Positions 1-14,024 of a stretch of DNA of 19,964 nucleotides are shown here, in pieces. The notes under the pieces are model-generated. The model was given only the letters and a program-made list of their open reading frames with translations, was not told the origin of the DNA and searched no databases. Source of the stretch: Pseudomonadota bacterium (GTDB taxonomy: Bacteria; UBA10199; 2-02-FULL-44-16; JBDRGF01); contig JBDRGF010000055.1 of assembly GCA_043818055.1 (NCBI GenBank), forward strand, positions 1-19,964, read 5' to 3'. Made by a program: the position numbers and the translations under genes. Positions within the stretch are counted from its first letter, which is position 1, and each line of letters starts with the position of its first letter.

Positions 1-312
1 TGGATATTAGCTGAAAATTATAAATTCATCAAATATACAACAAAGGAGGATTGTTGGACTATTATAAATGTTCCAGATGGTCTAACATATTTACTAAATC
101 GCAAAACAGGAAGTACTTGGCGTTGGTATAGAAACTATAAAAAGGGTGAATTTGCTGAATTTGAAGAAGAAGGCTGGACGCCAGTTTTATTTGATGTAGG
201 TTTATCAAAATTTACAGATCCGAATAACGCACAAGCTACTTTAATAACTTATACCAACATTATCAATAAAATTGACATGAAAAATATACAAAAAAAGAAT
301 CAACAAAAATAA
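1..312 (+). CDS. 3' part of a hypothetical protein (5' end outside window)
   Basis: Frame +1 is open from base 1 (WILAENYKFIKYTTKEDCWTII...KKNQQK) to TAA at 310-312. It is absent from the ORF track, and I recognise no motif. Confidence 0.65.
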   Translation, partial: WILAENYKFIKYTTKEDCWTIINVPDGLTYLLNRKTGSTWRWYRNYKKGEFAEFEEEGWTPVLFDVGLSKFTDPNNAQATLITYTNIINKIDMKNIQKKNQQK

Positions 313-353
313 ATAAAGTTCACTTTCGTATTGTGTAAAGCCTGTGGCTATTT

Positions 354-410
354 ATCCCTCCTAACCTATCCCTGTTATGCAACAGGGCATGCCTTAGTAA
401 AGGGAGGGAT
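354..410. repeat. Compound palindromic element or possible bidirectional terminator between convergent genes
   Basis: Outer arms ATCCCTCC (354-361) and GGAGGGAT (403-410) enclose an inner hairpin CCCTGTT-atgc-AACAGGG (370-387). Confidence 0.5.
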
Positions 411-415
411 TTCTA

Positions 416-1051
416 CTAATAATTCAACATCCAATTTGGAAGAGTATAGCTCAACATCGTTCCATCTATTATGTAGTATGGAATTATTCTTTTTTCTACG
501 AAGTCTATAACCTTAGGAAATATTTCCAGTGCCTCTGCGTGTATTTCATATTTGGGTAATGCCTCATCTAAACGTTTTATATATTCCTTTGGATCAACCA
601 AGCGTGTATCGAACGCGTCAAAGATATCTTTTACATCCTGTTTGCGATTTGCGGAGCTTAAAAAGTTTGAAAATGTTTTTGAAATTAAAACATCTGTGGG
701 ATTTAATCTTGTCACGTTTAAACAGTTAAATTTCTTAAAAGATATGAATTGTGGTTGAGGTGGCAGCCAGACTATTGCAACGGGAACGATATCTAGATAC
801 ATTCCATAGCGAAAAGAGCCCGGACTTCTCTTGCCATATTCCTTTTCCAAAAAATTTAAAACATCCATGTTTTTGGGATCATTCAAAATATCGGTTTTCA
901 ATGTATCGACGTCTTTAGTACCTCTTTCGGGCAGGCCGGCAATCTCAAGTGCAGAAAATCCAATAAGTTTAAATTCTATCGTAATACGATCAAAATTTTT
1001 ATGAACTGCGTCATCTATCTCTGTAAAATATGTGGTGTAGTTTTCAATCAT
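416..1051 (-). CDS. DUF6036/AbiEii-like nucleotidyltransferase, putative type IV TA toxin
   Basis: Motif LIGFSAL...RGTKDVD resembles the G-x-x-A...R-x-T-x-D-x-D signature of Pol-beta superfamily AbiEii/DUF6036 enzymes. Start moved to ATG 1051 (MIENY), which has GAGGAG about 10 nt upstream and an ATGATTGA overlap with the upstream stop. Confidence 0.7.
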   Translation of the reverse strand: MIENYTTYFTEIDDAVHKNFDRITIEFKLIGFSALEIAGLPERGTKDVDTLKTDILNDPKNMDVLNFLEKEYGKRSPGSFRYGMYLDIVPVAIVWLPPQPQFISFKKFNCLNVTRLNPTDVLISKTFSNFLSSANRKQDVKDIFDAFDTRLVDPKEYIKRLDEALPKYEIHAEALEIFPKVIDFVEKRIIPYYIIDGTMLSYTLPNWMLNY

Positions 1052-1730
1052 GGCTTGCACTCTCCTCGATGAATTTAGATACATATTCAGGTGTAATATC
1101 TGCTAATGTGTTTTGTTGATACGACCCGCCTGTTATCGAATCGAGTTTTTCCTCAAGTTCCAATAACTGCTTTTCAATCCTTTTGTCGTAAGTTAAAAAA
1201 TTCTTATTTGTCTCGGAGAGGATTCCAATAATCGCCTTTAGATTGGAAAGTAGTATCTCATTATCTATCTTTGTTATGATTCGTGATATTGATAGTTTGT
1301 TATTGTAGATTTGATAATAGATGGTTGTTGCCAGCGCTGCCGCAAATCGTGGATCATCAACTTCGCTCAAGGCGACATTTAGAAAATCTTCATAAGTTTG
1401 AAAGTGTTTTTTGATATCGATCGTCTGTTTGCTTTTTAAATGACGAGCCCCATAAAAAACCAATCCAGCCCTTAGTATATCCTCCTGATCGTAAGAGATG
1501 GAGCTCTGTTCACCGATAAAATATGACAAGGTGCGATTAAAAATTTTAGACAGAAAACAGAGTTTCTCCGCGGGGATTGATGTCGTGCCGTTTTCAATTC
1601 GCGAGATGGTTGGTTGTGTAACACCTAGCACCTTTGCAAGATATGCTGCGCTGATGTTTTCCTCTTCACGCAGTTTTCGAATGGCCTTACCTATTCGGCT
1701 CCTGAATTCCCTGATCTCTATCGGTTCCAT
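1044..1730 (-). CDS. XRE-family HTH protein with C-terminal extension, putative antitoxin/regulator
   Basis: IRKLREEENISAAYLAKVLGVTQPTISRIENG is a typical Cro/C1 HTH, and the gene is translationally coupled to the NTase. Start chosen at ATG 1730 (MEPIE); the track's 1769 start is possible. Confidence 0.8.
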   Translation of the reverse strand: MEPIEIREFRSRIGKAIRKLREEENISAAYLAKVLGVTQPTISRIENGTTSIPAEKLCFLSKIFNRTLSYFIGEQSSISYDQEDILRAGLVFYGARHLKSKQTIDIKKHFQTYEDFLNVALSEVDDPRFAAALATTIYYQIYNNKLSISRIITKIDNEILLSNLKAIIGILSETNKNFLTYDKRIEKQLLELEEKLDSITGGSYQQNTLADITPEYVSKFIEESASHD

Positions 1731-1762
1731 AGGTGCAAATATGGCATAAATTTTGACCTTTG

Positions 1763-1778
1763 TATACATAAATGTATA
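1763..1778. promoter_or_regulatory. Operator-like palindrome TATACAT-aa-ATGTATA upstream of the XRE gene
   Basis: Perfect 7-bp arms. Same TATNCAT-N2-ATGNATA pattern as the sites inside the ~200-bp repeats. Confidence 0.55.
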
Positions 1779-1819
1779 TAGCTTATCATAAATATCTGTA
1801 ATATATGATCTATACTAGA

Positions 1820-2018
1820 TTCTTATTCATATACGCATAATTTATGCATATATGAATAGAAAATTGGGAAAATGGTTATAAATCTACAGGTTGAGACAGT
1901 TGAGAGGTTTCTTCTATCAATATATAGGTGATGAGTGGGATGATAATCGAATGACAGAAAACAAAAGGGTGGACACATAGGTCCACCCCTACAAGAGCAT
2001 TAACAACGGACCCTTCCC
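1820..2018. repeat. ~200-bp direct repeat element, copy 1
   Basis: TTCTTATTCATATACGCATAA...GAATAGAAAATTGGGAAAATGGTTATAAATC...GGTTTCTTCTATCA...TATATAGGTGATGA...CCCCTACAA...CATTAACAACGGACCCTTCCC aligns by eye with 6527-6721 and 8436-8665. Confidence 0.95.
1966..1992 (-). repeat. GTAG-type REP hairpin
   Basis: GGGTGGAC-acatag-GTCCACCC followed by CTAC (GTAG on the minus strand). Confidence 0.75.
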
Positions 2019-2129
2019 GACCTGCCAGGTTAGAAAGAGCGGCTTGTGTTGGGTGTGAGACGGGTTTTGAGAAAGCGGGGGAGAGATGCGGAATAAGAAC
2101 TTTAGAGCGTAAGAGCTTGAGAATGGGGT

Positions 2130-2196
2130 GTTATTGCGAGGAGCGTATCCGCCAGAGGCTAATCAGCCTTTGGCTGAAGCGACGTGGCAATCTCGG
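2130..2196 (+). repeat. GTCATTGCGAG...GCAATCTC-type palindromic repeat with a nested hairpin
   Basis: GTTATTGCGAGGAGC...AGCGACGTGGCAATCTC matches the reverse complement of 10085-10122 but is interrupted by GCCAGAGGCT-aatc-AGCCTTTGGC. Confidence 0.7.
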
Positions 2197-2217
2197 CGCG
2201 GGCTGTGAGGTTCGGGG

Positions 2218-2249
2218 CTACTCCCTGTACAATGCGGTACAGGGAGTAG
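2218..2249. repeat. Perfect 13-bp inverted repeat
   Basis: CTACTCCCTGTAC-aatgcg-GTACAGGGAGTAG. Confidence 0.7.
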
Positions 2250-2388
2250 AGGGACAGCGAGGAAGAAGCTTTAAATAGCTAGCTCCCGGCAAATGTCCGC
2301 AATACAGCAACCTCCTTGCATTATTATCGAATAATGCTTATCTGGCATGACATTCTCGAAACACCAAAGTTTCATCAAGGAGAGCGAC

Positions 2389-4077
2389 ATGAACATATCA
2401 ACTGGCTATTTGCTACATCCCAATCCCTTCAACAGTTTTCTAAATTGCAACTTGTCGAAGAAAAAGAAATCCAAGACCAAAACTACCCCTACAAAAAAGC
2501 AACCGCCAAAGCCCGTTTCTGATCCACAATTGGGAAAGATGCTGTTAGTGCATAATAGATTAAATCGACGCTTGCTTGGGTATATGATCAGCGTAACAGC
2601 AAGTGTGCCTCGCACTAAATCATTGATGGCAAAATATCCAAACACAATAATGGCCAAGGAGCTTGAACAAAAATTGAAGATTGGCTCGCTTGATGGAAAA
2701 CCGGGTTACAGCTTGGTGGAGAATCGTGTAAGAGCTCACATTTATTCCAGATTGGGAGTCATCAGTCCCATGGGTGTTATGTTTTATCGACCTGAGTTGT
2801 CTCAAATACGATCAACGTTAAGGGGATTGTATAGTGTTTATTCTTCAGCAAAAGGAAGAAAGCAAAATATTCAGCAGGTCTATATCTTTTTCGAAAATTG
2901 GAACAAATATTGCGATGCCTATGGCATTGCGAAGGATAAGAAAGTGCGCAAACAGTTGATCACGCGCATGGAAAGAAAATTGCAAATATTTTACACCTCA
3001 GAAAGTGGCAAACCTCTAAATATCAGTTTTAAAATTGTCACCAAAATGAACCATTTCGATTCTGCAAAAGCCAACAAGGCAAAGATTGTTTTAATTTCAT
3101 CGCCGGAGAGGGGTAAGGGTAAAGGAGGTGGGCATTTTCTTAACGCATTATTAAAGAATAAACTAGGTGTAAGGATATCGAAAACTCAGCAAACTTTCTT
3201 TCAACAACATGCTAACAAAATTATGAAGGGCTATGCTCGAACTACTCTCTGTTCAACACCACCCATATTCTATTTTAAATCTTGGATGAAACGCAGATTT
3301 CCTAAGATAGAGTTGGTAGCAAGACTTCAAAAGGAGATCTGGGAGAATCGCATCTTTAACAAGAAGCTATCGGATGAGACGGTTATCTTGCGAGCGATTA
3401 CAGATCCAAAAATTGCACACCTGATCTTAAGACTTAAGAAGCCTGAAGGAAAAGAACTCCTACATACAATCAATATGTATAGACGGAGTATGCCTAAGGC
3501 TTTAGCCGAACATATCCTTCAAAAGTTGCGATACTGGCAACAGGAGTTCAAAAAATCGCACTTTACACAACGTATTTATGAAGGCGCTGAGCTTAAAGCT
3601 GCCAACTTTTTGATGTTCACATATTATAAAAAACAGCTCAAAAAGTTTAAGAAAAACCCTAAGGCGATTGAGATAGTTTTAAAACAACGCTTCTTCAAGA
3701 AAATGCTTATTAAAAGCATGAACCATGATTGGGGGATGGCGCTCATTGGATGTAAATTCAACAGTGGTAATAGGCGCTCCACGGGTTATATCTTACTCAG
3801 CTTGAATCAGCGAAGAAAGTGGATGAAGAAACACATTCAATTCGAACGTTTAGTCAACACGATCGCTCATGAGGTTGGTCATACCTTAGGTCTGCAACAT
3901 CACTATGTTGGTAGAATGTTACGTGGCCAACTGAGCTCCAAAGTTATCAAGGGGAAAAAATATTATTATGAACCTACGATGGTCGCCGGACCATTTCGAT
4001 ACGATAGTAACACTGCTTTTCAGTTTTCTCCACCTAACAAGAGGGTATTGAGGTGGATGCTGGGCACAAAACGCTAG
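2389..4077 (+). CDS. Lys-rich protein with C-terminal metzincin-type zinc metalloprotease motif
   Basis: HEVGHTLGLQH fits HExxHxxGxxH, with a candidate Met-turn downstream (PTMV). Start moved to ATG 2389, preceded by AAGGAG at 2377-2382. No obvious signal peptide. Confidence 0.75.
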   Translation: MNISTGYLLHPNPFNSFLNCNLSKKKKSKTKTTPTKKQPPKPVSDPQLGKMLLVHNRLNRRLLGYMISVTASVPRTKSLMAKYPNTIMAKELEQKLKIGSLDGKPGYSLVENRVRAHIYSRLGVISPMGVMFYRPELSQIRSTLRGLYSVYSSAKGRKQNIQQVYIFFENWNKYCDAYGIAKDKKVRKQLITRMERKLQIFYTSESGKPLNISFKIVTKMNHFDSAKANKAKIVLISSPERGKGKGGGHFLNALLKNKLGVRISKTQQTFFQQHANKIMKGYARTTLCSTPPIFYFKSWMKRRFPKIELVARLQKEIWENRIFNKKLSDETVILRAITDPKIAHLILRLKKPEGKELLHTINMYRRSMPKALAEHILQKLRYWQQEFKKSHFTQRIYEGAELKAANFLMFTYYKKQLKKFKKNPKAIEIVLKQRFFKKMLIKSMNHDWGMALIGCKFNSGNRRSTGYILLSLNQRRKWMKKHIQFERLVNTIAHEVGHTLGLQHHYVGRMLRGQLSSKVIKGKKYYYEPTMVAGPFRYDSNTAFQFSPPNKRVLRWMLGTKR

Positions 4078-4124
4078 GGTCAAGAGCTATGGCAATCTCG
4101 GGGTTAAGCAAGTGCTAAAATAAA

Positions 4125-4540
4125 TTATTTTGATTTTCTTGTTAAAATCACCTTTATGCCTTCTCCTGAGCCAGCAGTTACTAAAACTATATTTGCTTCG
4201 GCGTCCATGCTCATATTAAGTTCTATCTTATCAAGTTGATATTTCTCGGTTTCAGTTTTAATTCCATCAACAAAGCGAATCATGTTATTAATTCCCTCAA
4301 TCAGTTTTTTTTCTTGCGAAAGTGTAACTCCAATTTTTTTAACAAATGAAACAGCTCCATCCCAAGCATCTCTTTGAAAAGTATAACCTACAGTTGGTCT
4401 AGGCTGTTTTTCTTTTTTGGCACCACTCATTACAAGTGCTTGAAACACAACTTCATCTACAGCTTTTTGTTTTGCATATGTAGTGTATGAAAAAAAAATG
4501 ACACTAAAACCAACGTAATAATTATAATTGTCTTTTTCAT
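4125..4540 (-). pseudogene. Small secreted protein with Pepco-like C-terminal domain, frameshifted at an A9 tract (4490-4498)
   Basis: AGGAGG plus ATG at 4540 begins a signal peptide (MKKTIIIITLVLVSFFF). One extra T in the T9 run joins it in frame to SYTTYAKQKAVDEVVFQALV... of ORF 4125-4448. The tail YQLDKIELNMSMDAEANIVLV...GIKVILTRK resembles Pepco/Trypco-type domains by eye. Confidence 0.6.
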
Positions 4541-4555
4541 TTTTGCCCTCCTGGA

Positions 4556-5161
4556 TTACTTTTGCTGTGCTTTACTGAAATTGAAAACTTTATCTAGCCT
4601 ATTTATCATATCCTGCACATTTTCACTGGGCTCAATTTCAAGTATGTCACACATTAATTTAAGATCATCTTTTGAACTATTATATCTCAGTTCTTTCTGA
4701 TGTTCGTCAAAATTAGCATCGGGGTTTTCCTTAGTTGCCCCTCCATTAGCCATTATCACAGCTCTTATCACTTTGTATGACCTCTTTTGACCATTTAATA
4801 TAATTAGATAGTATTTTTTTCGAGCTAAAAACATAAATAGCCTTTGAAAAAGGTAACCAATTAATAACGCGAAAACTATTGAACAGATTGGAATATAATA
4901 AAATTCATTTTTATTAAATTCAGACGTTTTGATTTGTGAAAAAATTAAACCGAAAACTCCACCTAACACAGAAAAAAATAGCCCTGGATATGTTAAATAT
5001 CTTTTAATGTAAGCCTTTTTTAGCGCATACGGTGACTCTCCATCCCAACTAAATATTGATTCTTTAGCTTCAACGGGACCTGAGATCTGGTGACGAAATG
5101 CTATCCAAAGCCCCGCAAGCAACGTTCCGAATGACAAAAAAGGAAGAGCTTTTAAAAACAT
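4556..5161 (-). CDS. Hypothetical membrane protein (about 3 TM segments)
   Basis: Three hydrophobic stretches followed by a soluble C-terminal part. GAGGTG precedes the ATG, and the gene ends 15 nt before the next start. Confidence 0.7.
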   Translation of the reverse strand: MFLKALPFLSFGTLLAGLWIAFRHQISGPVEAKESIFSWDGESPYALKKAYIKRYLTYPGLFFSVLGGVFGLIFSQIKTSEFNKNEFYYIPICSIVFALLIGYLFQRLFMFLARKKYYLIILNGQKRSYKVIRAVIMANGGATKENPDANFDEHQKELRYNSSKDDLKLMCDILEIEPSENVQDMINRLDKVFNFSKAQQK

Positions 5162-5304
5162 ATTATCACCTCGTAAATCGTTAATCTATATCCCTGCCTT
5201 CCTAGAGATAACAGCTTTTGTTTTTCGCTACATAGCTGTTTTACCCCTAGATCCCCACATCTCAACCCGAGGCTGCCCCGCCTTTAGCAGAAAGTGCGGG
5301 CTGA

Positions 5305-5389
5305 CCCCGTAGAGACGCTTCGCGTCCACGGGGCAAGCAAAACTCACAGCTCATGACGCAAAGCCCAAAGCACATAGCCCCTAGCCCCC
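5305..5389. repeat. GC-rich hairpin plus degenerate heptamer tandem array downstream of the HEPN gene
   Basis: Hairpin CCCCGT..GACGC-ttc-GCGTC.ACGGGG at 5305-5333. Heptamers AACTCAC AGCTCAT GACGCAA AGCCCAA AGCACAT AGCCCCT AGCCCCC at 5341-5389. Confidence 0.5.
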
Positions 5390-5390
5390 A

Positions 5391-5798
5391 TCATCCCAAC
5401 CTCTTAACATTCCTATTATAGAAGCTGACCATCTCTTCTAAAACTTTTACTGCAATTTTTGCATCCTTCTTTGTAACGTTCCTGCATTCATAGGCAGCCA
5501 GGTTTTTTAAATTTAGAATGCTATTGATTTCATTTGCCAAGCCTTTGAAATTACTCTTTCCTATTTGGTTGAGTTTTTGTTGTAGTAGTATTGGTGCCTG
5601 GGCATGGCCAGTAGTCTTGTTATCACTGCCGAAAAGATTTATGGATAGAGCATCCATATAATTGATGAGGCTTAAGCAAGCGGTACTGACACAGGCATCA
5701 TAAGCTTTTTCTTCCATCAGAAATTCAATAGGCAATTTGTGTTCTTCTGCCTTCTTTTGCAGAATTAGATAATCACTCTTTGGATAGTTCTTCGCCAT
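5391..5798 (-). CDS. HEPN-like protein, putative toxin of an MNT-HEPN pair
   Basis: 135 aa with a helical-looking pattern, a conserved-looking His (GHAQA) and KNLAAY where the HEPN Rx4-6H motif normally lies. Overlaps the upstream MNT gene. Confidence 0.65.
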   Translation of the reverse strand: MAKNYPKSDYLILQKKAEEHKLPIEFLMEEKAYDACVSTACLSLINYMDALSINLFGSDNKTTGHAQAPILLQQKLNQIGKSNFKGLANEINSILNLKNLAAYECRNVTKKDAKIAVKVLEEMVSFYNRNVKRLG

Positions 5799-6387
5799 TG
5801 TTCACCCAAATCAATTCGCCCTGTTTATAGACATCATCTAATGAAAGCCCTTTTTCTTTGTTTTCTTCACCTTCGATAAAAATGTGAATATCAAGATTTA
5901 ATTTCAGTTTTACAGCTTCATTCAGGAAATGTTCTTTGACTTTTTCGATTTCAGCATTAGATCTGATCACTATCGCAATATCAATGTCGCTTGAGGGTGT
6001 ATCATCTCCCTTAACTATGCTGCCGAAAAGAAATATCTCTTTGATTAAGGCCTTTAGATTTTGATCGAGCGATTGAAGTATGTCTTTTATAAAATCTTTA
6101 AAAAAATTTCTCTCTTTCGCAAAAAGAGGAATTATAATTTTTCTGGTTATGTACGATTCTTCATCAAGTTTATACAAAATAGTTTTTCCTGCATTGAATC
6201 TGTCGATTAGCTTCAGCTGTTCTAATGAATTGCAGGCTCTGCTTATTGTCGATGGATGGATTCCAACTGAATCACTTATCTGTTTTTGTGAAAAACGATT
6301 TGGTCGATTCCTATATAGAAATCGCAATATAGCCACTTGGGTTCTATCCCCTAAAATCTCTACACTAAGATTGCTGTAATAACCCAT
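5773..6387 (-). CDS. Winged-HTH plus minimal nucleotidyltransferase (MNT/MntA-like antitoxin)
   Basis: N-terminal wHTH (SQKQISDSVGIHPSTISRACNSLEQLKLI). C-terminal LFGSIVKGDDTPSSDIDIAIV is the GS...DxD MNT motif. Confidence 0.85.
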   Translation of the reverse strand: MGYYSNLSVEILGDRTQVAILRFLYRNRPNRFSQKQISDSVGIHPSTISRACNSLEQLKLIDRFNAGKTILYKLDEESYITRKIIIPLFAKERNFFKDFIKDILQSLDQNLKALIKEIFLFGSIVKGDDTPSSDIDIAIVIRSNAEIEKVKEHFLNEAVKLKLNLDIHIFIEGEENKEKGLSLDDVYKQGELIWVNNGEELSKE

Positions 6388-6409
6388 AGATATCGTTTAT
6401 ATATCTTTA

Positions 6410-6463
6410 TTGCAAAACTGCAACATATATTTCAAATTTGCAATATATATTGCAAATTTGCAA
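6410..6463. promoter_or_regulatory. Three 14-bp palindromic operator-like sites at 20-bp period
   Basis: TTGCAAAACTGCAA (6410), TTTCAAATTTGCAA (6430) and TTGCAAATTTGCAA (6450, perfect palindrome), directly upstream of the wHTH-MNT start. Confidence 0.7.
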
Positions 6464-6526
6464 CATAGGTTGGTGAGGATATAACCCGAACGAGCTAACA
6501 TATCGAAATAACTAAATTATTCTCGT

Positions 6527-6721
6527 TTCTTATTCATATACGCATAAATTATGCATATATGAATAGAAAATTGGGAAAATGGTTATAAATCAATAGGTTG
6601 AGCCAATTGAGAGGTTTCTTCTATCATTATATATAGGTGATGACTGGGATGACAATCGAACAACATAAGAGAAAAGGGCGGCCACAGGGGGCAGCCCCTA
6701 CAAAAACATTAAAATACGGAC
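6527..6721. repeat. ~200-bp direct repeat element, copy 2
   Basis: Core is near-identical to copies 1 and 3. Contains AATCAATAGGTTG (6588-6600), a GTAG REP (6675-6701) and CATTAAAATACGGAC. Similarity to copy 3 extends left to about 6492. Confidence 0.95.
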
Positions 6722-6778
6722 TTCGGCAACAGGCTCTACTAAGGGGAGAAAGCGCACAATCCATAACTCACAGCGGCT

Positions 6779-8221
6779 TCACCCATCCTTAAATATTTCA
6801 TCCAGCGTTATCACCTTTGAAAAATAGTTCATATCCTCCAAGTCCTTGGTTATGCCGTTGGTGGTTATTAACACCTTTTCAAGCGACTTATCTGTCTTGC
6901 CGATCAAGGCAACCTTTTTCTCAACATCCTTTATAATCCATTTTCCAATCGGGCCGTCGTAATATTTTATTTCGCATATAGTAATAACAGGATCATACCT
7001 TTCGAACATAAGGTCGATCTGTACTCCATCCTTTGTATTTGATCCACGATCAAAATATGCCCCATAGTTTTTAATAAGTTGATCAATCTTCAACACCTTC
7101 GAAATCAAGGGTATGTGCTTTAAACATAACCTCTCAAAAGCAAATCCAGACCAGGATTTATATCGTCTCCCTTTCAACACTTCCAATCCAAAATTTTGAT
7201 CGGTATTATCTTTGATCCTTTTTAGGTTTGGATAAACGAATTTAAAGTAGAATAACAAATACTCATCGAACAGACGGTATCTTTTCAGCCTTGAATCTTC
7301 AGCCTTATTCAATGGAATTATACTTTTAACAAAACCTGCAGTCTCAAGATTTTCCATATAATCAACAAAGCCACCACCACCGGATACGTTCAATTCATCT
7401 GTCAACTCAGGAATTTTCAGACTTTTATATTTACTGAGAAGCAAGACGATCTGCTTATAAATTTTTTCTTCTCTGAAAATATCTTTAAAAATTCGGTCGA
7501 ACTCATGCACAAAATAGCCATCCTTAGTAAACCCAAGCTTTGCGATATTTTGATAAACGGCATCATCTGGATTAATCTGAAGAAGATATTCGGGGACTCC
7601 ACCACAAAACATATATAGATCACAGATTTCGCGTATGGCTTTTTTTCCACCAAAAAATTCGCTCACCTCAGGAATAGAGAGCGGTTGCAAACATATTTCC
7701 AGCTTTACCCTTCCATATAAACTCGATGACTTAACGACATTGTTGATCATGAATGATGCTACTGATCCACATAGCACTAATGTAAATCCATGTTTGTCCT
7801 GCCACAGGTTGTCCCATGCCCATTTTACCGCAGCGACGAGTTCGGTTTGACGTGAGGCCATGTATTGAAACTCATCAAAAAAAATTGTCTTATTATATTT
7901 TTCAGGGCTTTGTGATATAGCCTGATCGATAATCTTGAGAAGTTCTATCCAATCGTTGCAACGGATGGTGGCGTAGATATTATTTCCGCTAAATGATGAC
8001 AGCTGTTCTAGTATGCGTTTTATCTGCGTGGGTTTGTTTTCATTCTCTATCCCATCGAACTTCCAAATATTTTTATCCTTGTAGAATTCCGTAATGAGTC
8101 TTGTCTTACCGACCCGGCGTCTTCCATATACAACAACCAAACTTGAATTGGGTTTTTCATACTCCTCCCTCATCAACCGTAATTCATATTCCCGGCCGAT
8201 GAACTGCTTGTGACCATCCAT
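6779..8221 (-). CDS. P-loop ATPase (archaeal-ATPase/ATPase_2-like) with probable wHTH and C-terminal PD-(D/E)xK/DUF234-like domain
   Basis: FIGREYEL N-terminus, Walker A GRRRVGKT, Walker B IFFDEFQY, LVLCGS, and C-terminal QIDL...ICEIKY. Start moved to ATG 8221 (MDGHK), 9 nt after AGGAGG. Confidence 0.85.
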   Translation of the reverse strand: MDGHKQFIGREYELRLMREEYEKPNSSLVVVYGRRRVGKTRLITEFYKDKNIWKFDGIENENKPTQIKRILEQLSSFSGNNIYATIRCNDWIELLKIIDQAISQSPEKYNKTIFFDEFQYMASRQTELVAAVKWAWDNLWQDKHGFTLVLCGSVASFMINNVVKSSSLYGRVKLEICLQPLSIPEVSEFFGGKKAIREICDLYMFCGGVPEYLLQINPDDAVYQNIAKLGFTKDGYFVHEFDRIFKDIFREEKIYKQIVLLLSKYKSLKIPELTDELNVSGGGGFVDYMENLETAGFVKSIIPLNKAEDSRLKRYRLFDEYLLFYFKFVYPNLKRIKDNTDQNFGLEVLKGRRYKSWSGFAFERLCLKHIPLISKVLKIDQLIKNYGAYFDRGSNTKDGVQIDLMFERYDPVITICEIKYYDGPIGKWIIKDVEKKVALIGKTDKSLEKVLITTNGITKDLEDMNYFSKVITLDEIFKDG

Positions 8222-8328
8222 AAAATTCATCCTCCTATAACGCATTTTTTAACCTATTATAGGAGGATAAATCAACAAAATTCATCCTCCTATAACGCAT
8301 TTTTAAACCCATTATAGGAGGATGAATT
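8222..8328. promoter_or_regulatory. Two tandem 47-bp repeats, each an inverted repeat containing the ATPase SD sequence
   Basis: Repeats at 8222-8268 and 8277-8323 with arms ATCCTCCTATAA / TTATAGGAGGAT. The second has perfect 17-bp arms (8279-8295 and 8312-8328). Confidence 0.8.
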
Positions 8329-8331
8329 GAA

Positions 8332-8385
8332 TTGCAGATTTGCAACAATCATTGCAAAATTGAAAGATATGTTACAATTTTGTAA
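8332..8385. promoter_or_regulatory. Second triple array of TTGCAAATTTGCAA-like sites at 20-bp period
   Basis: TTGCAGATTTGCAA (8332), TTGCAAAATTGAAA (8352), TTACAATTTTGTAA (8372). Confidence 0.65.
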
Positions 8386-8435
8386 GATGTTTTGTATAAA
8401 GACCTAACGTGTTGAAATAATTAGATTATATTCGT

Positions 8436-8665
8436 TTCTTATTCATACATGAATAGAAAATTGGGAAAATGGTTGTAAATCAATAGGTTGAGCCAATTGA
8501 GTGGTTTCTTCTATCATTATATATAGGTGATGACTGGGGTAGTAATCGAGCAGTATAAAATAAAAGGGCGGGTTAAAAACCCGCCCCTACAAAACCAACA
8601 CCAAAAACAAAAGGGTGGGCACTTTCGGCCCGCCCCTACAAAAACATTAACAACGGACTCTTCCC
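8436..8665. repeat. ~200-bp direct repeat element, copy 3, overlapping the gadB 3' end
   Basis: Same core with a single 16-bp palindrome (8440-8455), an IHF-like site (8478-8490) and two tandem GTAG REPs (8565-8590, 8612-8639). It ends inside the last codons of gadB. Confidence 0.95.
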
Positions 8666-10050
8666 TTGCTCTTCACCTGTTTCGCCTTATATCCCGGCTG
8701 GGATTCGAAGTGTTTAAGGATTCTGTCCAAATCTTCGAGCAACAGATCCGCCATGTCTCTGCTCAACCCCTCCTTCACTACTATGCGCAAGACTGCTGTT
8801 TCAGTTGAATTCTCTGGCAGCGTATAAGCCGGCACGAGCCATCCGCGATGACGCAGCATCTCGGAGATATCAAAAACTGAAAAATTGTTGTTCTTGGGAT
8901 CTTTTAGTTTGAAGGCAAAGACTGGAATATCGTTTCCGTTTGTGATGCACTCGAATGGTCCGAGTTTTTCGATCTTGCCGGATAGATAGAGCGCTATATC
9001 CTGACATGCCTGCTGAATGCGCTGATATCCATCGAAGCCCAATCGCAGAAAGTTGTAATACTGCGCGACGATCTGATTGCCGGGACGGGAGAAGTTGATC
9101 GCGAAGGTCGGCATGTCGCCGCCTAAGTAATTTACCTTGAAGATCAGATCTTCGGGAAGCTCATCCCAGTCGCGCCAGATCACCCAGCCAACACCCGGAT
9201 AGACCAGGCCAAATTTATGACCCGACACATTTATCGATTTCACCCACTTGAGGCGGAAATCCCATTCCAATTTTGGCTGCAAGAAGGGGAGTATGAAACC
9301 GCCGCTCGCACCATCGATATGAATCGGAATGTCATGTCCTGTTTTTTTATTATGTTTATCCAGCGCATCGTTGATCTCTTTCACCGGCTGATACTCGCCG
9401 GTAAAGGTCGTTCCCATCGTGATGCCGATGCCGATCGTGTTTTCGTCGCAACGCTTGATCACCTCATCTGCGTTCACACCGGAGCGGCCGTTTTGCATCG
9501 GAATGAAGCGTGGCTCAATCTCCCAGTAGCGGCAGAATTTTTCCCAACAGACCTGCACATCGATACCCAAAACGATATTCGGTTTGTCCGTCGGCTTGTT
9601 CTGGGCTTTCATGCGAGCCTTCCATTTCCACTTCATCGCCATGCTACCCAGCATCACCGCCTCACTTGAACCGATAGTCGAACATCCGCACGATTTGGCC
9701 TCTGCCGGCGCGTGATAGAGATTTGCTAAGATGTTCACACAGCGCATCTCGAGCTCCGCTGTTTGCGGATATTCATCCTTGTCGATCATGTTTTTATCGA
9801 AGGTCTCAGTCATGAGCGTCTGTGCCTCCGGCTCCATCCACGTTGTGACAAATGTGGCGAGGTTGAGTCGAGCGTTGCCATCGAGCATCAATTCGTCGTG
9901 AACGATCTGATAGGCGCTGCGGGGACGCATCTCATTTTTTGGAAGTTTGTACTTCGGAACCGGCTGTTCAAGTTCTAATGATCCGAATGTTGGTGTGATC
10001 AGTTGTTTGCTCTCCTCCATCTCTTTCAAATTGTGTTTGTGCTGTAACAT
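8647..10050 (-). CDS. gadB: Glutamate decarboxylase (PLP-dependent)
   Basis: NARLNLATFVTTWME, KNMIDKDEYPQT, TIGSSEA, IHIDGASGGF and SINVSGHKFGLVYPGVGW (PLP lysine). Start moved to ATG 10050 after AGGGAGG. Confidence 0.96.
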   Translation of the reverse strand: MLQHKHNLKEMEESKQLITPTFGSLELEQPVPKYKLPKNEMRPRSAYQIVHDELMLDGNARLNLATFVTTWMEPEAQTLMTETFDKNMIDKDEYPQTAELEMRCVNILANLYHAPAEAKSCGCSTIGSSEAVMLGSMAMKWKWKARMKAQNKPTDKPNIVLGIDVQVCWEKFCRYWEIEPRFIPMQNGRSGVNADEVIKRCDENTIGIGITMGTTFTGEYQPVKEINDALDKHNKKTGHDIPIHIDGASGGFILPFLQPKLEWDFRLKWVKSINVSGHKFGLVYPGVGWVIWRDWDELPEDLIFKVNYLGGDMPTFAINFSRPGNQIVAQYYNFLRLGFDGYQRIQQACQDIALYLSGKIEKLGPFECITNGNDIPVFAFKLKDPKNNNFSVFDISEMLRHRGWLVPAYTLPENSTETAVLRIVVKEGLSRDMADLLLEDLDRILKHFESQPGYKAKQVKSKGRVRC

Positions 10051-10084
10051 GTTTGCCTCCCTTGTTTTTTTTAAAACCAAACCC

Positions 10085-10122
10085 GAGATTGCCACGTCGC
10101 TCTACGAGCTCCTCGCAATGAC
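10085..10122 (-). repeat. GTCATTGCGAG...GCAATCTC-type palindromic repeat between gadC and gadB
   Basis: GAGATTGCCACGTCGC...CTCCTCGCAATGAC, the reverse complement of the element at 2130-2194. Confidence 0.7.
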
Positions 10123-10139
10123 AGGCGTTGATTAGTGTT

Positions 10140-11540
10140 TTATTTTTTCCATTCCGGTTTTTTGAAGTGGTTTATTATCAACGGCATGCCACCTAAAACT
10201 GTGACGCCCAGGATCAAAAAGGTTATGTAAAATGTCGGACTGCCTACGGTTAGCTGCGATGGTGGAAAGAAGCCGACTGTGATAGCAAATAGAGCACCTA
10301 AGATGCCGATGCCTGCAACAAACCACATACCAAAATTGCCAAACGGGATTTTGTACGCACGAGTAACTTTGGGTTGTGTGTAGCGGAGTCGAATTGCCGC
10401 AACGAAAAGTATAATGTACATAGTCAGGTAAAGAATTACTGCGAGAGCCGTGAGCAGGAAGAATGCGCTGCTGACATTTGGCATCAGAAGATAGACGAGC
10501 GAAACCGCCGTCACTATCAATCCCTGAATTAAAAGTATGTGCGTCGGCACGCCGCTCTTGTTTGTGTGTGCGAGAAATGGCGGCAGGTCGCCATCCTTGG
10601 CTGTCGCAAGAAGACCTTTGCTGGGGCCGACTATCCACGGAGTGACCGCGCCGATCGCGCCAAAAGCGAGAAAGAATCCGATGACGGGAAGCAGCCAATC
10701 GAGTTTGAAGATGTTCAAGAGATCCATAAAACCCTGCATGATCCCGGCCGTCAGACTTATTTTTTTAACTGGCAATACTGCTGCGATCGATAGTGTGCTG
10801 AGCGTAAATATAATAACTATTATAAAGGCGGCCAGGAATATTGCCTTCGGGTAATCTTTTTTCGGATTTTTTACATCGAGCGCGTGAACGGCGGAGACCT
10901 CCATGCCTGCAAAAAGAAGGACCACGCCAGCGAGGAATGAGATGTTGCTGAAGTTGCTGAAGTCGGGGAGGATGCTGTGTGATGTAAGCGTGAATTCTAA
11001 GGTATTTCCCTTCACCCACCAGGCGATTCCAAGTGCGATGATGAGTATGCCCGGGAGAATCGTGCCGCCGATAACCCCTGCAGTGGTCAGCCAACCTGAT
11101 GTCTTCATACCGCGAAAGTTCATGAAAGTTGCGCCCCAGTAGATGACGAGTATCACAGCAACGTTGAAAATTTTATTGTTTGCTAGGGATGGATCCATGA
11201 AGAGGTACGACAAAGCACCCGCGGCGAAGGCCAGAATCGTCGGGTACCAGATGACATTCTGAATCCATTGCAGCCAGATCGCCAGAAATCCCCAGCGGCC
11301 CCCAAATGCTACTTTGATCCACCGATAGACGCCACCCTCCTTGGGCCAGCCGGTTGCGAGCTCAGCCGAGACGAGCGATGTTGGAATCAAAAAGATAAAG
11401 GTCGCAAAGAGGACGAAGAAGATCATAGACAACCCCTCTTTGGCCATCATCGGTAGTCCCCTAAGATTCATGATGATCGCCACATTCATCATGCCTAGAA
11501 CGAAAACACTCAAATAGTGTTTTTTTGATGTACCTTTCAT
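10140..11540 (-). CDS. gadC: APC-family amino acid antiporter, GadC-like (glutamate:GABA)
   Basis: About 12 hydrophobic segments with motifs AELATGWP.EGGVY.W, FAGME.SA.H, WIVGPSKGLL. Adjacent to gadB. Start moved to ATG 11540 after AAGGAG. Confidence 0.8.
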   Translation of the reverse strand: MKGTSKKHYLSVFVLGMMNVAIIMNLRGLPMMAKEGLSMIFFVLFATFIFLIPTSLVSAELATGWPKEGGVYRWIKVAFGGRWGFLAIWLQWIQNVIWYPTILAFAAGALSYLFMDPSLANNKIFNVAVILVIYWGATFMNFRGMKTSGWLTTAGVIGGTILPGILIIALGIAWWVKGNTLEFTLTSHSILPDFSNFSNISFLAGVVLLFAGMEVSAVHALDVKNPKKDYPKAIFLAAFIIVIIFTLSTLSIAAVLPVKKISLTAGIMQGFMDLLNIFKLDWLLPVIGFFLAFGAIGAVTPWIVGPSKGLLATAKDGDLPPFLAHTNKSGVPTHILLIQGLIVTAVSLVYLLMPNVSSAFFLLTALAVILYLTMYIILFVAAIRLRYTQPKVTRAYKIPFGNFGMWFVAGIGILGALFAITVGFFPPSQLTVGSPTFYITFLILGVTVLGGMPLIINHFKKPEWKK

Positions 11541-11558
11541 ATTTCTCCTTTCATTATA

Positions 11559-11694
11559 ATGGATCCCCGCCTTCGAGACTGTTGCCGAACTAAATTGTAG
11601 GGGCAACCCCCCGTGGTTGCCCTCTTATAAGGGCAGGCACTTTCGGCCTGCCCCTACAAAATCAAAATAGATCCTTCGTTACACTCAGGATGAC
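11559..11694. repeat. Cluster of REP-like elements including an inverted GTAG pair (REPIN/BIME-like)
   Basis: GTAGGGGCAACC...GGTTGCCC (11597-11622) faces GGGCAGGC...GCCTGCCCCTAC (11631-11657). Also AGATCCTTCG...CTCAGGATGAC (11669-11694) and a TGGATCCCCGCC remnant at 11559. Confidence 0.7.
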
Positions 11695-11713
11695 AACCGA
11701 GCCGTATTTTCAC

Positions 11714-13222
11714 TTAATTCTTAGCGCTGCGTTTTAGTGCTATTTTCAAAAAGTTAACCAAATACGGCGTGCCCTGATTGTACGGGACCTTTATCTCTCC
11801 GTGAAACTGCTCGCCGTAGATCATTCGTGTCTTACTCTTCATCGCCTGAATGTAGCTAGACTTTGCGATGACTTCAAAGTCCTCTTGCGGATGCGCGACC
11901 GCCCAGCCGTGGACCTCGACTGCGACGAACGGATCTGGCACTCCATCAAAGATTGGATCCTTTTTTTCTATATCTATTTCAGTTCGTGCTCTCGCCTTAT
12001 CCATGGCGGTGATATCCTTCCACCCCATCGAGCGCGCATATGTGTAACCATATGCCATCGCAAGCTGTTGATGACCGCAGCAAATTCCAAGAATAGGAAT
12101 GTCGGATTCGCGAATGATCTCATACTCGCCGTTGTATTCGAACATCGGCAGGTTTTGGTAGTCGGCGTTGTTTCCGCTTAAAATTATCGCAACCGGTTTT
12201 CTTTTTAGATTTTTCACCATATCGAGCGAGACCTCATAATGAGGCACGGTGAGCGTCTTGAGTCCGATGTCGAGACCCTCGACAAACTTCGCAAGCTCTG
12301 TGAAGGTAAATCCGTTCTGCTGATCGCCAACGATGAGAATATAGTCTTCATCCGGTGTATCTGGGACAGGGGGCTTTCCCGGCGAATAGAGCGTGATCGC
12401 GTTTATCTGTGCGGCGTAACCATGCCAATCATTTATGAGCAATCTCACGTAACGCGCTGAGACCGATTTAAAATCGATGATGTTGCGTAATGTGTCATTA
12501 TTGTCAATCTTTGTGCCGGGAATGTCTCTCCAGCTCTCTCCATCGTGGCTCGTCTGCCAGACGAAACTCTTGAGCCAGCCATCACTGCTGTCCGGATTTG
12601 AGAGCATCCAGACGCGCGAGAGCTCTGTAGCGCGGCCCAGATCAAACACAACCCATTGCTGATCGGATCCCGGCGGTGTCGATTGCCAGAAGGTCGACTG
12701 TCCCGGGTCGTCGAGATCGTAGATATTCTTCTTGTTATAGCCGCTCGAGACCTCGATATCCTGCACGGGAACCCTGACAAGATTCATAAAACTATCATCT
12801 GCCTTTTCGTCAAAATAAAAGCGCGATTTAGCCCACGGCCCCCCGTTACTCTTTGAATCGACGGCACGCACGCGCCAGTAATAGCGCTGCTTACCACTCA
12901 AGGTATCCTTTTCTTTTTCATGGAGCCTGCTTGTGATATCTAACTTTCCTGTAATGTATTGGTTCTCCTCAGGCACGTTTTTGTATTCGATGATGTTCTT
13001 GCTGTCGAAATTTTCAGATGTGTCGATTTGAATCGTGTAAGTTCTTTTTCCCACACCACCCGTTGCGTTGAAGAATGAAAAGAGGGGATAGGGGTTGGTC
13101 ACTATGACATCGAGGCTCGGGTTGTTGGTGAGTTTTGGTGCAGTGAGTGGAGTTGAGGGTTTTGAACAGGCGTTAAATATAAACAGAACAGACATCAGAA
13201 TAAAGATGGAAATGCGCCTCAT
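11714..13222 (-). CDS. Lipoprotein with an N-terminal beta-rich region, F5/8 type C (discoidin)-like domain and class I glutamine amidotransferase domain
   Basis: Lipobox-like LFIFNAC. Discoidin-like motifs TFWQS, QWVVFDLG, SHDGESW, SARYVRLLI. GATase motifs IILSG, ILGICCGHQ (nucleophile elbow) and QFHGE (His-x-Glu). Confidence 0.85.
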   Translation of the reverse strand: MRRISIFILMSVLFIFNACSKPSTPLTAPKLTNNPSLDVIVTNPYPLFSFFNATGGVGKRTYTIQIDTSENFDSKNIIEYKNVPEENQYITGKLDITSRLHEKEKDTLSGKQRYYWRVRAVDSKSNGGPWAKSRFYFDEKADDSFMNLVRVPVQDIEVSSGYNKKNIYDLDDPGQSTFWQSTPPGSDQQWVVFDLGRATELSRVWMLSNPDSSDGWLKSFVWQTSHDGESWRDIPGTKIDNNDTLRNIIDFKSVSARYVRLLINDWHGYAAQINAITLYSPGKPPVPDTPDEDYILIVGDQQNGFTFTELAKFVEGLDIGLKTLTVPHYEVSLDMVKNLKRKPVAIILSGNNADYQNLPMFEYNGEYEIIRESDIPILGICCGHQQLAMAYGYTYARSMGWKDITAMDKARARTEIDIEKKDPIFDGVPDPFVAVEVHGWAVAHPQEDFEVIAKSSYIQAMKSKTRMIYGEQFHGEIKVPYNQGTPYLVNFLKIALKRSAKN

Positions 13223-13313
13223 TTTCCCCCCAGGCTAATAATATTTATACTAATCTCCCTTATGGGGTTATACCAGACCTGACAGAATAAACAACATTTG
13301 TCTCGTACCCCAT

Positions 13314-13341
13314 TGGATCCTCGATCGAAGTCGGGGATGAT
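13314..13341. repeat. GGATCC...GGATGA-type small palindromic repeat
   Basis: ATCCTCGA-tcgaag-TCGGGGAT hairpin, with ends resembling those at 11669-11694. Confidence 0.45.
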
Positions 13342-13357
13342 AAAACGCACAGCCCAC

Positions 13358-13394
13358 AAACAAAAACCCCGAACTTGTTCTACAAGTTCGGGGT
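13358..13394 (-). terminator. Rho-independent terminator
   Basis: 13-bp perfect stem ACCCCGAACTTGT / ACAAGTTCGGGGT (13366-13394) followed by a T-rich tract on the minus strand, just after the stop at 13422. Confidence 0.85.
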
Positions 13395-13421
13395 GAGTTG
13401 AAAAATGTTTATTGCTACAAC

Positions 13422-14024
13422 TTACTTTTTAGCTGTCTGGATATCTTTCAAAATAATATCGCGGAATTCACTTTGGACATCGCCGGCTGTGTATGGGCTC
13501 GTGCTGATGATCGTGTGTTTGCCCTTTTGGATCATATTTGATTGATCTTCAGTGAGATTCAGTTCACTAAGAAGCTTCTTGTTTGTCTTATCCTTGATCG
13601 TGTATTCGATGATGTAATCGTTATTCTGCTGATAGTACTCGTAGTCGATCTGCATTGATTTTATGCTGCCCTTTTTGATATGAATCTTTGTTACGCCCGC
13701 TACACCTTCTGCGGTTTCGACTTTCGTGCTCTTAATAGAGCCCGCTTTGCCTTTTGCCTTTTCTTTAGTCACAGTGGCATCATCTGTTTCAGTGACTTTT
13801 ACTTTTGCCTTAGCGCCTGTTTCTGTATCTTTTACCTTTGCTTTGGTGACAGAACCGCTCTCTGTCGTTACACTCTTTTCCTTGCCTTTTACTGAACCCT
13901 CTTCCCATTTTACTTTTTCAACTGTCTTGCCATCCTTTTCAATGACCTTCACCTGCTCGCCTGCAAAGAGATTCATGCTGAAACCAATTGCTAAAATACA
14001 TGCTACCACCAAAAACTTTTTCAT
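13422..14024 (-). CDS. Secreted hypothetical protein with Lys/Thr/Val-rich repetitive region
   Basis: Signal peptide MKKFLVVACILAIGFSMNLFA. Start moved to ATG 14024 after GGGGAGG. Confidence 0.8.
   Translation of the reverse strand: MKKFLVVACILAIGFSMNLFAGEQVKVIEKDGKTVEKVKWEEGSVKGKEKSVTTESGSVTKAKVKDTETGAKAKVKVTETDDATVTKEKAKGKAGSIKSTKVETAEGVAGVTKIHIKKGSIKSMQIDYEYYQQNNDYIIEYTIKDKTNKKLLSELNLTEDQSNMIQKGKHTIISTSPYTAGDVQSEFRDIILKDIQTAKK

Follow-up and report, generated by a model that had tools for sequence, protein, structure and literature searches.

How did unrelated toxin-antitoxin (TA) and candidate defence genes come to be lined up behind the acid-resistance gene gadB (glutamate decarboxylase) of an uncultured bacterium, each parted from the next by a copy of one repeat of about 200 bp? 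The question is raised by a single contig (C55, 19,964 nt, taken whole and called the window below) of a metagenome-type assembly of 2,927,731 bases in 166 contigs with 43.3% GC; near-identical DNA was found in groundwater and biofilm metagenome runs from several studies. The right 11 kb of the window, at about 48–49% GC, carry gadB, gadC, a gene for a glutamine-amidotransferase-domain protein and an RND (resistance-nodulation-division) efflux system. The left 8.6 kb are AT-rich and contain the cargo units, called units 0, 1 and 2 from left to right, with 35–39% GC; at 0.355–0.385, compared with 0.49 for gadB and 0.433 for the whole genome, the units are foreign in composition. We give an even chance to the reading that the repeat copies are scars of successive insertions at the 3' end of gadB, each insertion having duplicated, or brought along, its own junction copy. 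An earlier note on this DNA had described a cassette-like array delimited by the repeat; that description is confirmed with amendments, the element being peculiar to this locus, while the interpretation given there is partly supported, and the array belongs to a known kind.

Repeat search returned three 133-nt direct copies (1842–1974, 6549–6681 and 8439–8571) spaced by 4707 and 1890 nt, in agreement with the units of about 4.7 and 1.9 kb first described, and MAFFT alignments widened the copies to the limits given in Table 1. Every unit boundary in view thus has a direct repeat, all in the same orientation and each upstream of a different minus-strand module. On the minus strand, along which gadB and most cargo genes run, each copy consists of a 21-nt tail, a GC-rich hairpin of the repetitive extragenic palindromic (REP) type followed by a T run (one hairpin in copies 1 and 2, two in copy 3), a core of about 108 aligned columns with 30–33% GC, and an AT-rich palindrome. 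The similarity of the three copies is far beyond chance. The core is 88% identical between copies 1 and 2, 82% between copies 1 and 3 and 90% between copies 2 and 3; stretches of 26, 15 and 14 nt are invariant, while 10, 2 and 8 changes are unique to copies 1, 2 and 3, respectively, and the TA-rich centre of copy 1 differs by a 2-nt indel. Identity of the palindrome is 97% between copies 1 and 2 and 61% when either is compared with copy 3, a low value due to the 19 nt missing from the centre of copy 3. In the hairpin region the copies agree much less than in the core, with paired changes in the stems; this stronger difference suggests that the REP units were replaced or converted after the copies had formed. 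RNAalifold applied to the three copies gave a positive covariation term; compensatory changes were confined to the REP hairpin and one core pair, and the copies formed no single long imperfect hairpin. A leader of about 110 nt on the cargo side is common to copies 2 and 3, and the 273-nt match that contains it is 74% identical overall. An exact match to the integration host factor (IHF) consensus was found in copies 2 and 3 and not in copy 1 (three matches in the whole window, both strands). The same internal order had been claimed for all copies; to be amended are the palindrome, truncated in copy 3, and the IHF match, present in copies 2 and 3. No known RNA gene underlies the repeat: an Rfam search of positions 1–12,000 at E values up to 1 gave eight matches, all far below the gathering score (microRNA models, and sraA at E 0.65).

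The two parts of this composite are distributed quite differently. The AT-rich core, about 150 nt long in these searches, has three copies in the whole assembly, all of them in the window (BLAST, and nhmmer --max with filters off). Beyond this genome, BLAST of the core against 60 relatives gave a single match of 36 nt to the palindrome (E 5.9e-4), and a sequence-only covariance model run on 92 other genomes of the class gave two marginal matches (E 0.003 and 0.007, 17–18 bits), which we read as chance. Scans with 20-mers found 8 loci in a genome collection, with a longest core match of 29 nt, 17 loci in a metagenome collection, only one of which (L057, see below) matched further, and in viral collections 30 loci without a match above 20 nt, a second viral scan returning none. 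The hairpin with GTAG/CTAC and a tail of about 25 nt, on the other hand, belongs to a REP family dispersed over the genome, with 53 BLAST hits; in another BLAST search, 37 of the 42 matches lay on other contigs and covered only query positions 149–206, that is, hairpin and tail. Hairpin-only matches were present in 3 of 40 relatives, and in none of the 21 of the same order. Dispersal of the kind expected of REP sequences, bacterial interspersed mosaic elements (BIMEs) or miniature inverted-repeat transposable elements (MITEs) is therefore seen for hairpin and tail and not for the core. Judged by this distribution, the hairpin and tail of the composite are the genome's common REP/terminator: the GTAG hairpin is present in the element, as had been noted, and belongs to a genome-wide family. 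The concern that the whole repeat might be scattered is answered by the same searches, since only the REP part is dispersed. Other dispersed families of 100–200 nt, with 12–42 BLAST hits each, were seen elsewhere in the genome (C21 8249–8353, 13302–13425 and 19537–19659; C15 1194–1302), and one of them has terminal inverted repeats and a MITE-like look.

The gadB product ends in KGRVRC, and all seven full-length homologues read from the same order (74–80% identical) end in KVRC, so that the last 19 nt of the gadB open reading frame (ORF) within copy 3 are native. Copy 1 carries these 19 nt, stop codon included, plus 2 nt, with 20 of 21 positions identical, and its similarity with copy 3 ends exactly there; at up to one mismatch the 21-mer occurs in the genome only at these two places. 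Tail identity is accordingly 95% between copies 1 and 3, compared with 52% between copies 1 and 2 and 48% between copies 2 and 3: the tail of copy 2 is the REP-family consensus and agrees with the gadB end at 10–11 of 21 positions. A gadB-end copy had been claimed for every repeat; it is real in copy 1, so that there is one displaced copy, not two. With 20 of the 21 gadB-end positions retained, copy 1 therefore derives from a junction that at one time adjoined gadB, at this locus or in a donor, and this piece of coding sequence argues that the copies were made at the gadB end, in line with the single site proposed before. A second gadB-end copy that could mark an outer boundary was not found in the genome, the sole other match (on C75) having three mismatches. 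The content downstream of gadB differs in all seven same-order relatives read; the core was found in none of them, and the set includes no genome of the same family. In one of them (G001; L102, C13 3519–4798) gadB is immediately followed by a DUF6036 nucleotidyltransferase (E 4.5e-15) and by an ORF of 234 aa without a family, with no pairwise similarity to the XRE/nucleotidyltransferase-like pair of unit 0. The differing content and this pair give a weak hint that the site may have been used repeatedly. In two others (G013 and G021) a tRNA-Cys and a block matching C126 lie downstream of gadB. The tRNA-Cys was considered as the far end of an island and rejected: in the genome of the window it lies inside C126, with conserved genes on both sides.

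The three copies are nested in their similarities: the tail is common to copies 1 and 3, the palindrome to copies 1 and 2 and the leader to copies 2 and 3, with the core closest between copies 2 and 3; copies 2 and 3 also have the palindrome remnant in common. This nesting fits successive insertions at the gadB end. In such a history the XRE unit (unit 0) would originally have stood directly behind gadB. The 4.4-kb unit with a minimal nucleotidyltransferase (MNT) and a HEPN protein would then have been inserted, and the displaced junction copy would have kept 19 nt of the gadB ORF. The 1.6-kb ATPase unit would have come last, by a duplication that extended over the first ~110 nt of the MNT leader as well. 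The ~4.4- and ~1.6-kb units contain no mobility gene and are flanked by direct repeats of about 200 bp, well over 30 bp.

No transposase, integrase, relaxase or phage structural family was found among the 16 largest ORFs of the window and the 9 cargo ORFs. The contig has no tyrosine recombinase, and a search of the whole assembly with PF00589 gave seven matches, all on other contigs; two of these, on C106 and C131, are cut by contig ends. Whole-genome searches gave two resolvase-type and two Y1-transposase-like matches, again all on other contigs, so that none lies on the contig of the array. Nor is there an integron integrase on the contig, the left end of the array running off the contig edge, beyond which the search could not reach. 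At this edge, the first 20 and 30 nt match no other place in the assembly, and the cut ORF at 1–312 has no family and no longer homologue was found for it. The two attC boundary motifs (a regular expression for the consensus RYYYAAC/GTTRRRY, 50–150 nt apart, both strands, copies scanned with their flanks) were paired nowhere in copies 1 and 2, once in copy 3 and six times in the whole window; the idea that attC sites are not used is upheld by their absence from copies 1 and 2. No tRNA or tmRNA was found in the window by ARAGORN.

The assembly has independent support. A metagenome contig (L057) is 99.986% identical to window positions 6078–13426 and so spans copy 2, unit 2, copy 3 and gadB; by its sequence it is the same strain as the window. 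Contigs of public sequencing runs (Logan; X1, X2, X4 and X6 were placed on window positions 1–12,000) add to this. Contigs of run X1 cover 6619–7092, 8029–8532 and 8509–9377; copy 3 is matched without a difference and one contig has the 19-nt insert by which copy 2 is told apart. In run X3, a 617-nt contig contains copy 1 together with its own flanking DNA on either side. On 8331–8561, six contigs matched among runs X1, X2, X3 and X5 (5, 0, 1 and 0, respectively), and all could be assigned to copies 1–3. In the contigs of six runs, which at about 5x depth drop rare forms, the copies were nowhere joined to each other and the core stood in no fourth context. Backward jumps at 8592/6719 and 11623/6674 fall within REP hairpins, and the one joint seen, 5595 to 11377 in run X2 with 21 nt on its shorter side, was read as spurious.

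Two described processes would fit the insertion history, namely accretion in which integrase-less elements take part and insertion with long target duplication. The first, with cis-mobilizable elements (CIMEs), has been reported for islands related to ICESt1 and ICESt3 at the 3' end of fda in Streptococcus thermophilus (PMC5704250), and modular excision for PAISt at bacA in Streptomyces (PMC4057263). As in CIME accretion, three direct repeats bound modules behind the 3' end of a housekeeping-type gene, the inner modules are without integrase, and newer insertions would adjoin the gene. Unlike there, remnants of integrase or transfer genes are missing in and next to the units, one unit is made up of a lone gene of 1.6 kb, and the repeats are about 200 bp long and 82–90% alike, whereas the CIME cores are short and identical. 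Long target duplication was described by Nobusato, Furuta and Kobayashi for restriction-modification loci with repeats of 46 to ~420 bp and no mobility genes (PMC2853133); these repeats are near identical (for example 45/46 and 417/423) and the empty-site allele was obtained by genome comparison. The window shares with those loci defence-type genes of deviating GC content and direct repeats, far longer than transposon duplications, some of which overlap the last bases of a gene, and departs from them in repeats that are 10–18% diverged and stand three in series, and in a cargo of TA and candidate defence genes instead of restriction-modification genes. With these precedents the element is not of an unrecognised kind; the earlier note had matched it to no described att site or MITE. 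If the insertion history is true, the locus is a further example of defence and TA genes stacked at a gene end without an insertion enzyme of their own, in which displaced last codons of gadB date the order of insertion and the lineage's own REP terminators are built into every junction. By itself the locus opens no new question; its value would lie in adding one case to a survey of defence arrays that are delimited by repeats and lack an integrase.

What the junctions do today may be another matter. Each copy would now be mainly an intergenic terminator-plus-promoter unit, at which transcripts from gadBC or from the module before would end and those of the following module would begin. Copy 2 has the best sigma-70-like site (Table 1), the equivalent site of copy 1 (1919–1946) agrees at 9 of 12 positions, and none was called in copy 3. 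We consider it unlikely that the junction is both such an insulator and the substrate of an integrase-free insertion route, which would proceed by single crossover or long target duplication over about 200 bp anchored on the last gadB codons; were this true, the route would let this lineage stack defence and TA modules one at a time.

Several points weigh against the proposed history of insertions and its junctions. It was read from one sequence, the comparison genomes including none of the same family or genus as the organism of the window. The core divergence of 10–18% is far above that of the long-target-duplication repeats tabulated in PMC2853133, so that the copies would have to be old or to come from diverged donors, and it does not form a clean tree, given the unique changes listed above. 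Copy 2 is without the gadB tail, and the leader common to copies 2 and 3 has diverged more than the core. No recombinase is tied to the locus, and the contigs of the six runs hold neither an excision or deletion joint nor an alternative cassette at their depth. As to the promoters, 23 promoter-like sites were counted in the region compared with a mean of 29.9 after shuffling, the promoter being a pattern match; within the core, conservation is lowest in the −35 part, and the conserved columns are not more clustered than chance (26 invariant columns in a run, p ~0.09, an estimate).

Other explanations can be set beside successive insertion. The one closest to the earlier note, an active integron-like platform whose junctions are recombination sites and whose units excise as circles and re-insert with the help of an off-contig recombinase or of RecA alone, seems to us unlikely. 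The locus does resemble integron arrays and clusters of attC sites lacking integron-integrases (CALINs) in its small cassettes of one orientation, several of them of TA type, in a lineage-specific repeat of more than 100 nt and in having no integrase in view; direct repeats of one orientation flank single modules down to 1.6 kb, the invariant 26-, 15- and 14-nt stretches could be a crossover core, the IHF match of copies 2 and 3 and the AT-rich palindrome would suit such a site, and a recombinase could lie beyond the left contig edge or among the matches cut by contig ends on C106 and C131. Unlike those arrays, however, copies 1 and 2 have no attC boundary motifs, the copies form no single long imperfect hairpin, the cassettes have their own regulators and IntI was not found on the contig. 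The 2-nt indel in the TA-rich centre of copy 1 and the truncated palindrome of copy 3 also speak against a site in use, and the divergence of the core makes the array look old and fixed. Finally, the runs show only the three known contexts and L057 repeats the arrangement almost to the letter, so that the notion of a stockpile in use found no support at the depth of those contigs. Rather improbable, too, in our judgement, is a regulatory module (terminator, promoter, and operator or leader of a TA operon) spread by segmental duplication or gene conversion and kept as an insulator or driver, in which case the repeat says nothing on how the cargo arrived. Terminator-like hairpins in all three copies and the promoter-like site of copy 2 agree with it, the palindrome of copy 1 lies ~55–95 nt upstream of the XRE start, a possible operator position for a helix-turn-helix (HTH) antitoxin, and C162 has a four-copy, terminator-containing repeat among metabolic genes; it has to contend with three different DNA-binding proteins, with MNT and ATPase units that have proximal repeats or palindromes of their own, and with a core whose conservation is no more clustered than chance, and segmental duplication leaves three unrelated low-GC cargos unexplained.

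We think it very unlikely that a low-copy, MITE- or BIME-like REP composite landed three times independently of the cargo. It is true that hairpin and tail belong to the dispersed 53-hit family, that as in REP/BIME sequences this GTAG/CTAC hairpin with tail lies behind stop codons and is terminator-like, and that the genome has other dispersed 100–200-nt families and two Y1-transposase-like genes. Yet the core and the palindrome lie outside the dispersed family, the core having no copy outside the locus, all copies have one orientation and stand at a module boundary, and copy 1 contains gadB coding sequence, which is not expected in a mobile repeat. An assembly artefact that joins strain variants via a common repeat is the least probable of all, hardly to be credited. 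One might suspect it in a metagenome-type assembly of 166 contigs where the window is a whole contig; but copies that differ by 10–18% are not collapsed k-mer paths, L057 repeats copy 2, unit 2, copy 3 and gadB, X1 contigs cross the regions of copies 2 and 3 and the X3 contig spans copy 1 with both flanks. The check for such an artefact thus came out in favour of the copies.

Table 1. Features of the window and their positions (limits of the repeat copies are approximate; empty cells, nothing reported)
Feature	Position (nt)	Strand	Remarks
Unit 0 (to 1810), cargo	416–1769	-	XRE-HTH protein 1044–1769 (HTH_3, E 2.8e-15)
Nucleotidyltransferase-like ORF, unit 0	416–1084	-	overlaps the XRE ORF; DUF6036 E 0.0075, below cut-off
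Repeat copy 1	1811–2018		palindrome, core, REP hairpin, gadB 3'-end copy; from alignments, X3 contig
AT-rich palindrome, copy 1	1824–1863		
REP hairpin + T run, copy 1	1965–1990	-	terminator-like
gadB-end copy	1998–2018	-	last 19 nt of ORF with stop, plus 2 nt; 20/21 identical to 8645–8665
Unit 1	2019–6408		~4.4 kb
GC-rich repeat debris, unit 1	2019–2346, 5162–5390		
Zincin-like ORF, unit 1	2347–4077	+	576 aa
ORFs of no family, unit 1	4125–4448, 4556–5161		
HEPN, unit 1	5391–5798	-	E 6.2e-5
MarR-type winged HTH (wHTH) fused to NTP_transf_2 nucleotidyltransferase, unit 1	5773–6387	-	NTP_transf_2, E 1.7e-11
Leader common to copies 2 and 3 only	6409–6517		partner 8331–8426; TTGCAA-rich motifs included
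Repeat copy 2	6518–6736		palindrome, core, canonical REP unit and REP-type tail; from alignments, L057
AT-rich palindrome, copy 2	6526–6565		97% identical to that of copy 1
Match to IHF consensus WATCAANNNNTTR, copy 2	6588–6600	+	exact; same site 8478–8490 in copy 3
Sigma-70-like site, copy 2	6626–6655	-	TTGTCA-18-TATAAT, 11/12; best of first 10.2 kb, towards cargo
REP hairpin + T run, copy 2	6680–6696	-	terminator-like
Unit 2 (6737–8330, ~1.6 kb), cargo	6779–8245	-	single ATPase_2 + DUF234 gene
Two tandem 55-nt repeats	8216–8325		each an inverted repeat with GGAGG, directly upstream of ATPase start
Repeat copy 3	8427–8665		truncated palindrome, core, two REP hairpins, true gadB 3' end; from alignments, L057, X1
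Palindrome remnant, copy 3	8438–8455		centre minus 19 nt; short outer arms left
Two REP hairpins behind gadB stop, copy 3	8564–8646	-	gadB-distal hairpin terminator-like
gadB (glutamate decarboxylase), anchor gene	8647–10095	-	TIGR01788, 695.5 bits (cut-off 380.4)
gadC	10140–11606		next after gadB

The cargo itself is of TA and candidate defence type, as had been thought. The minus-strand modules were recovered with the predicted XRE, wHTH-MNT/HEPN and ATPase families, only the DUF6036 match of unit 0 falling below its cut-off. In unit 1 the nucleotidyltransferase and HEPN genes are adjacent and their ORFs overlap, as in type VII MNT-HEPN pairs, while the NCBIfam MntA model scored 36.3 bits on the wHTH-nucleotidyltransferase, below the cut-off of 60. 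PADLOC assigned this protein to PDC-M05A (E 1.6e-16) and the ATPase of unit 2 to the candidate defence family PDC-S27 (E 3.7e-110); no solved structural relative of the ATPase was found by sequence. Just upstream of the start of the wHTH-nucleotidyltransferase gene we observed a near-perfect, TTGCAA-rich palindrome of 52 nt (6421–6472) and no Shine-Dalgarno sequence; to judge from this arrangement the palindrome is likely to be an autoregulatory operator, and the mRNA may be leaderless. A paralogue of this gene on C95 (5966–6576, L110; 86.5% nucleotide identity over 474 nt) has its N-terminal HTH part replaced by the end of another ORF, which runs to the contig end and which, from a C-terminal motif, may be a transposase.

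The tandem 55-nt repeats in front of the ATPase gene are part of the ATPase cassette and lie outside the shared repeat. Each of these inverted repeats would pair the GGAGG that precedes the ATPase start codon. An ATPase paralogue on C156 (62% identical) is likewise preceded by two repeats of ~50 nt with a period of 56 (L111, 3434–3539), of a different sequence, and tandem repeats before PDC-S27 ATPases may be a family-specific operator or translational control element.

A few observations concern other repeats and unit 1. The local repeat on C162 has four copies of ~100 nt with a terminator-like hairpin (1808–1906, 1965–2074, 3182–3281 and 6100–6209), confined to this contig; its neighbours are genes for HAD and alpha/beta hydrolases, a GH19 chitinase, a methyltransferase and cation-efflux/transporter proteins, with no defence genes, and local repeats of low copy number thus occur in this genome away from defence genes too. 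The GC-rich segment at the left of unit 1 was considered as a gadB remnant and discarded, having only short matches to other dispersed repeats; 19 nt are common to this segment and the gadB-gadC spacer. Short GC-rich motifs at 2130–2200 and 10083–10124 are covered to a very high depth by contigs of many organisms in the metagenome runs (up to ~390 at 10101–10107) and are of a widespread environmental repeat type, not specific to this genome. Finally, upstream of the ORF 4125–4448, positions 4449–4540 hold a signal-peptide-like frame that opens with an ATG at ~4540 and meets a stop soon after a T run; the region 4125–4540 may be one small secreted protein, split by a frameshift or by a homopolymer sequencing error.

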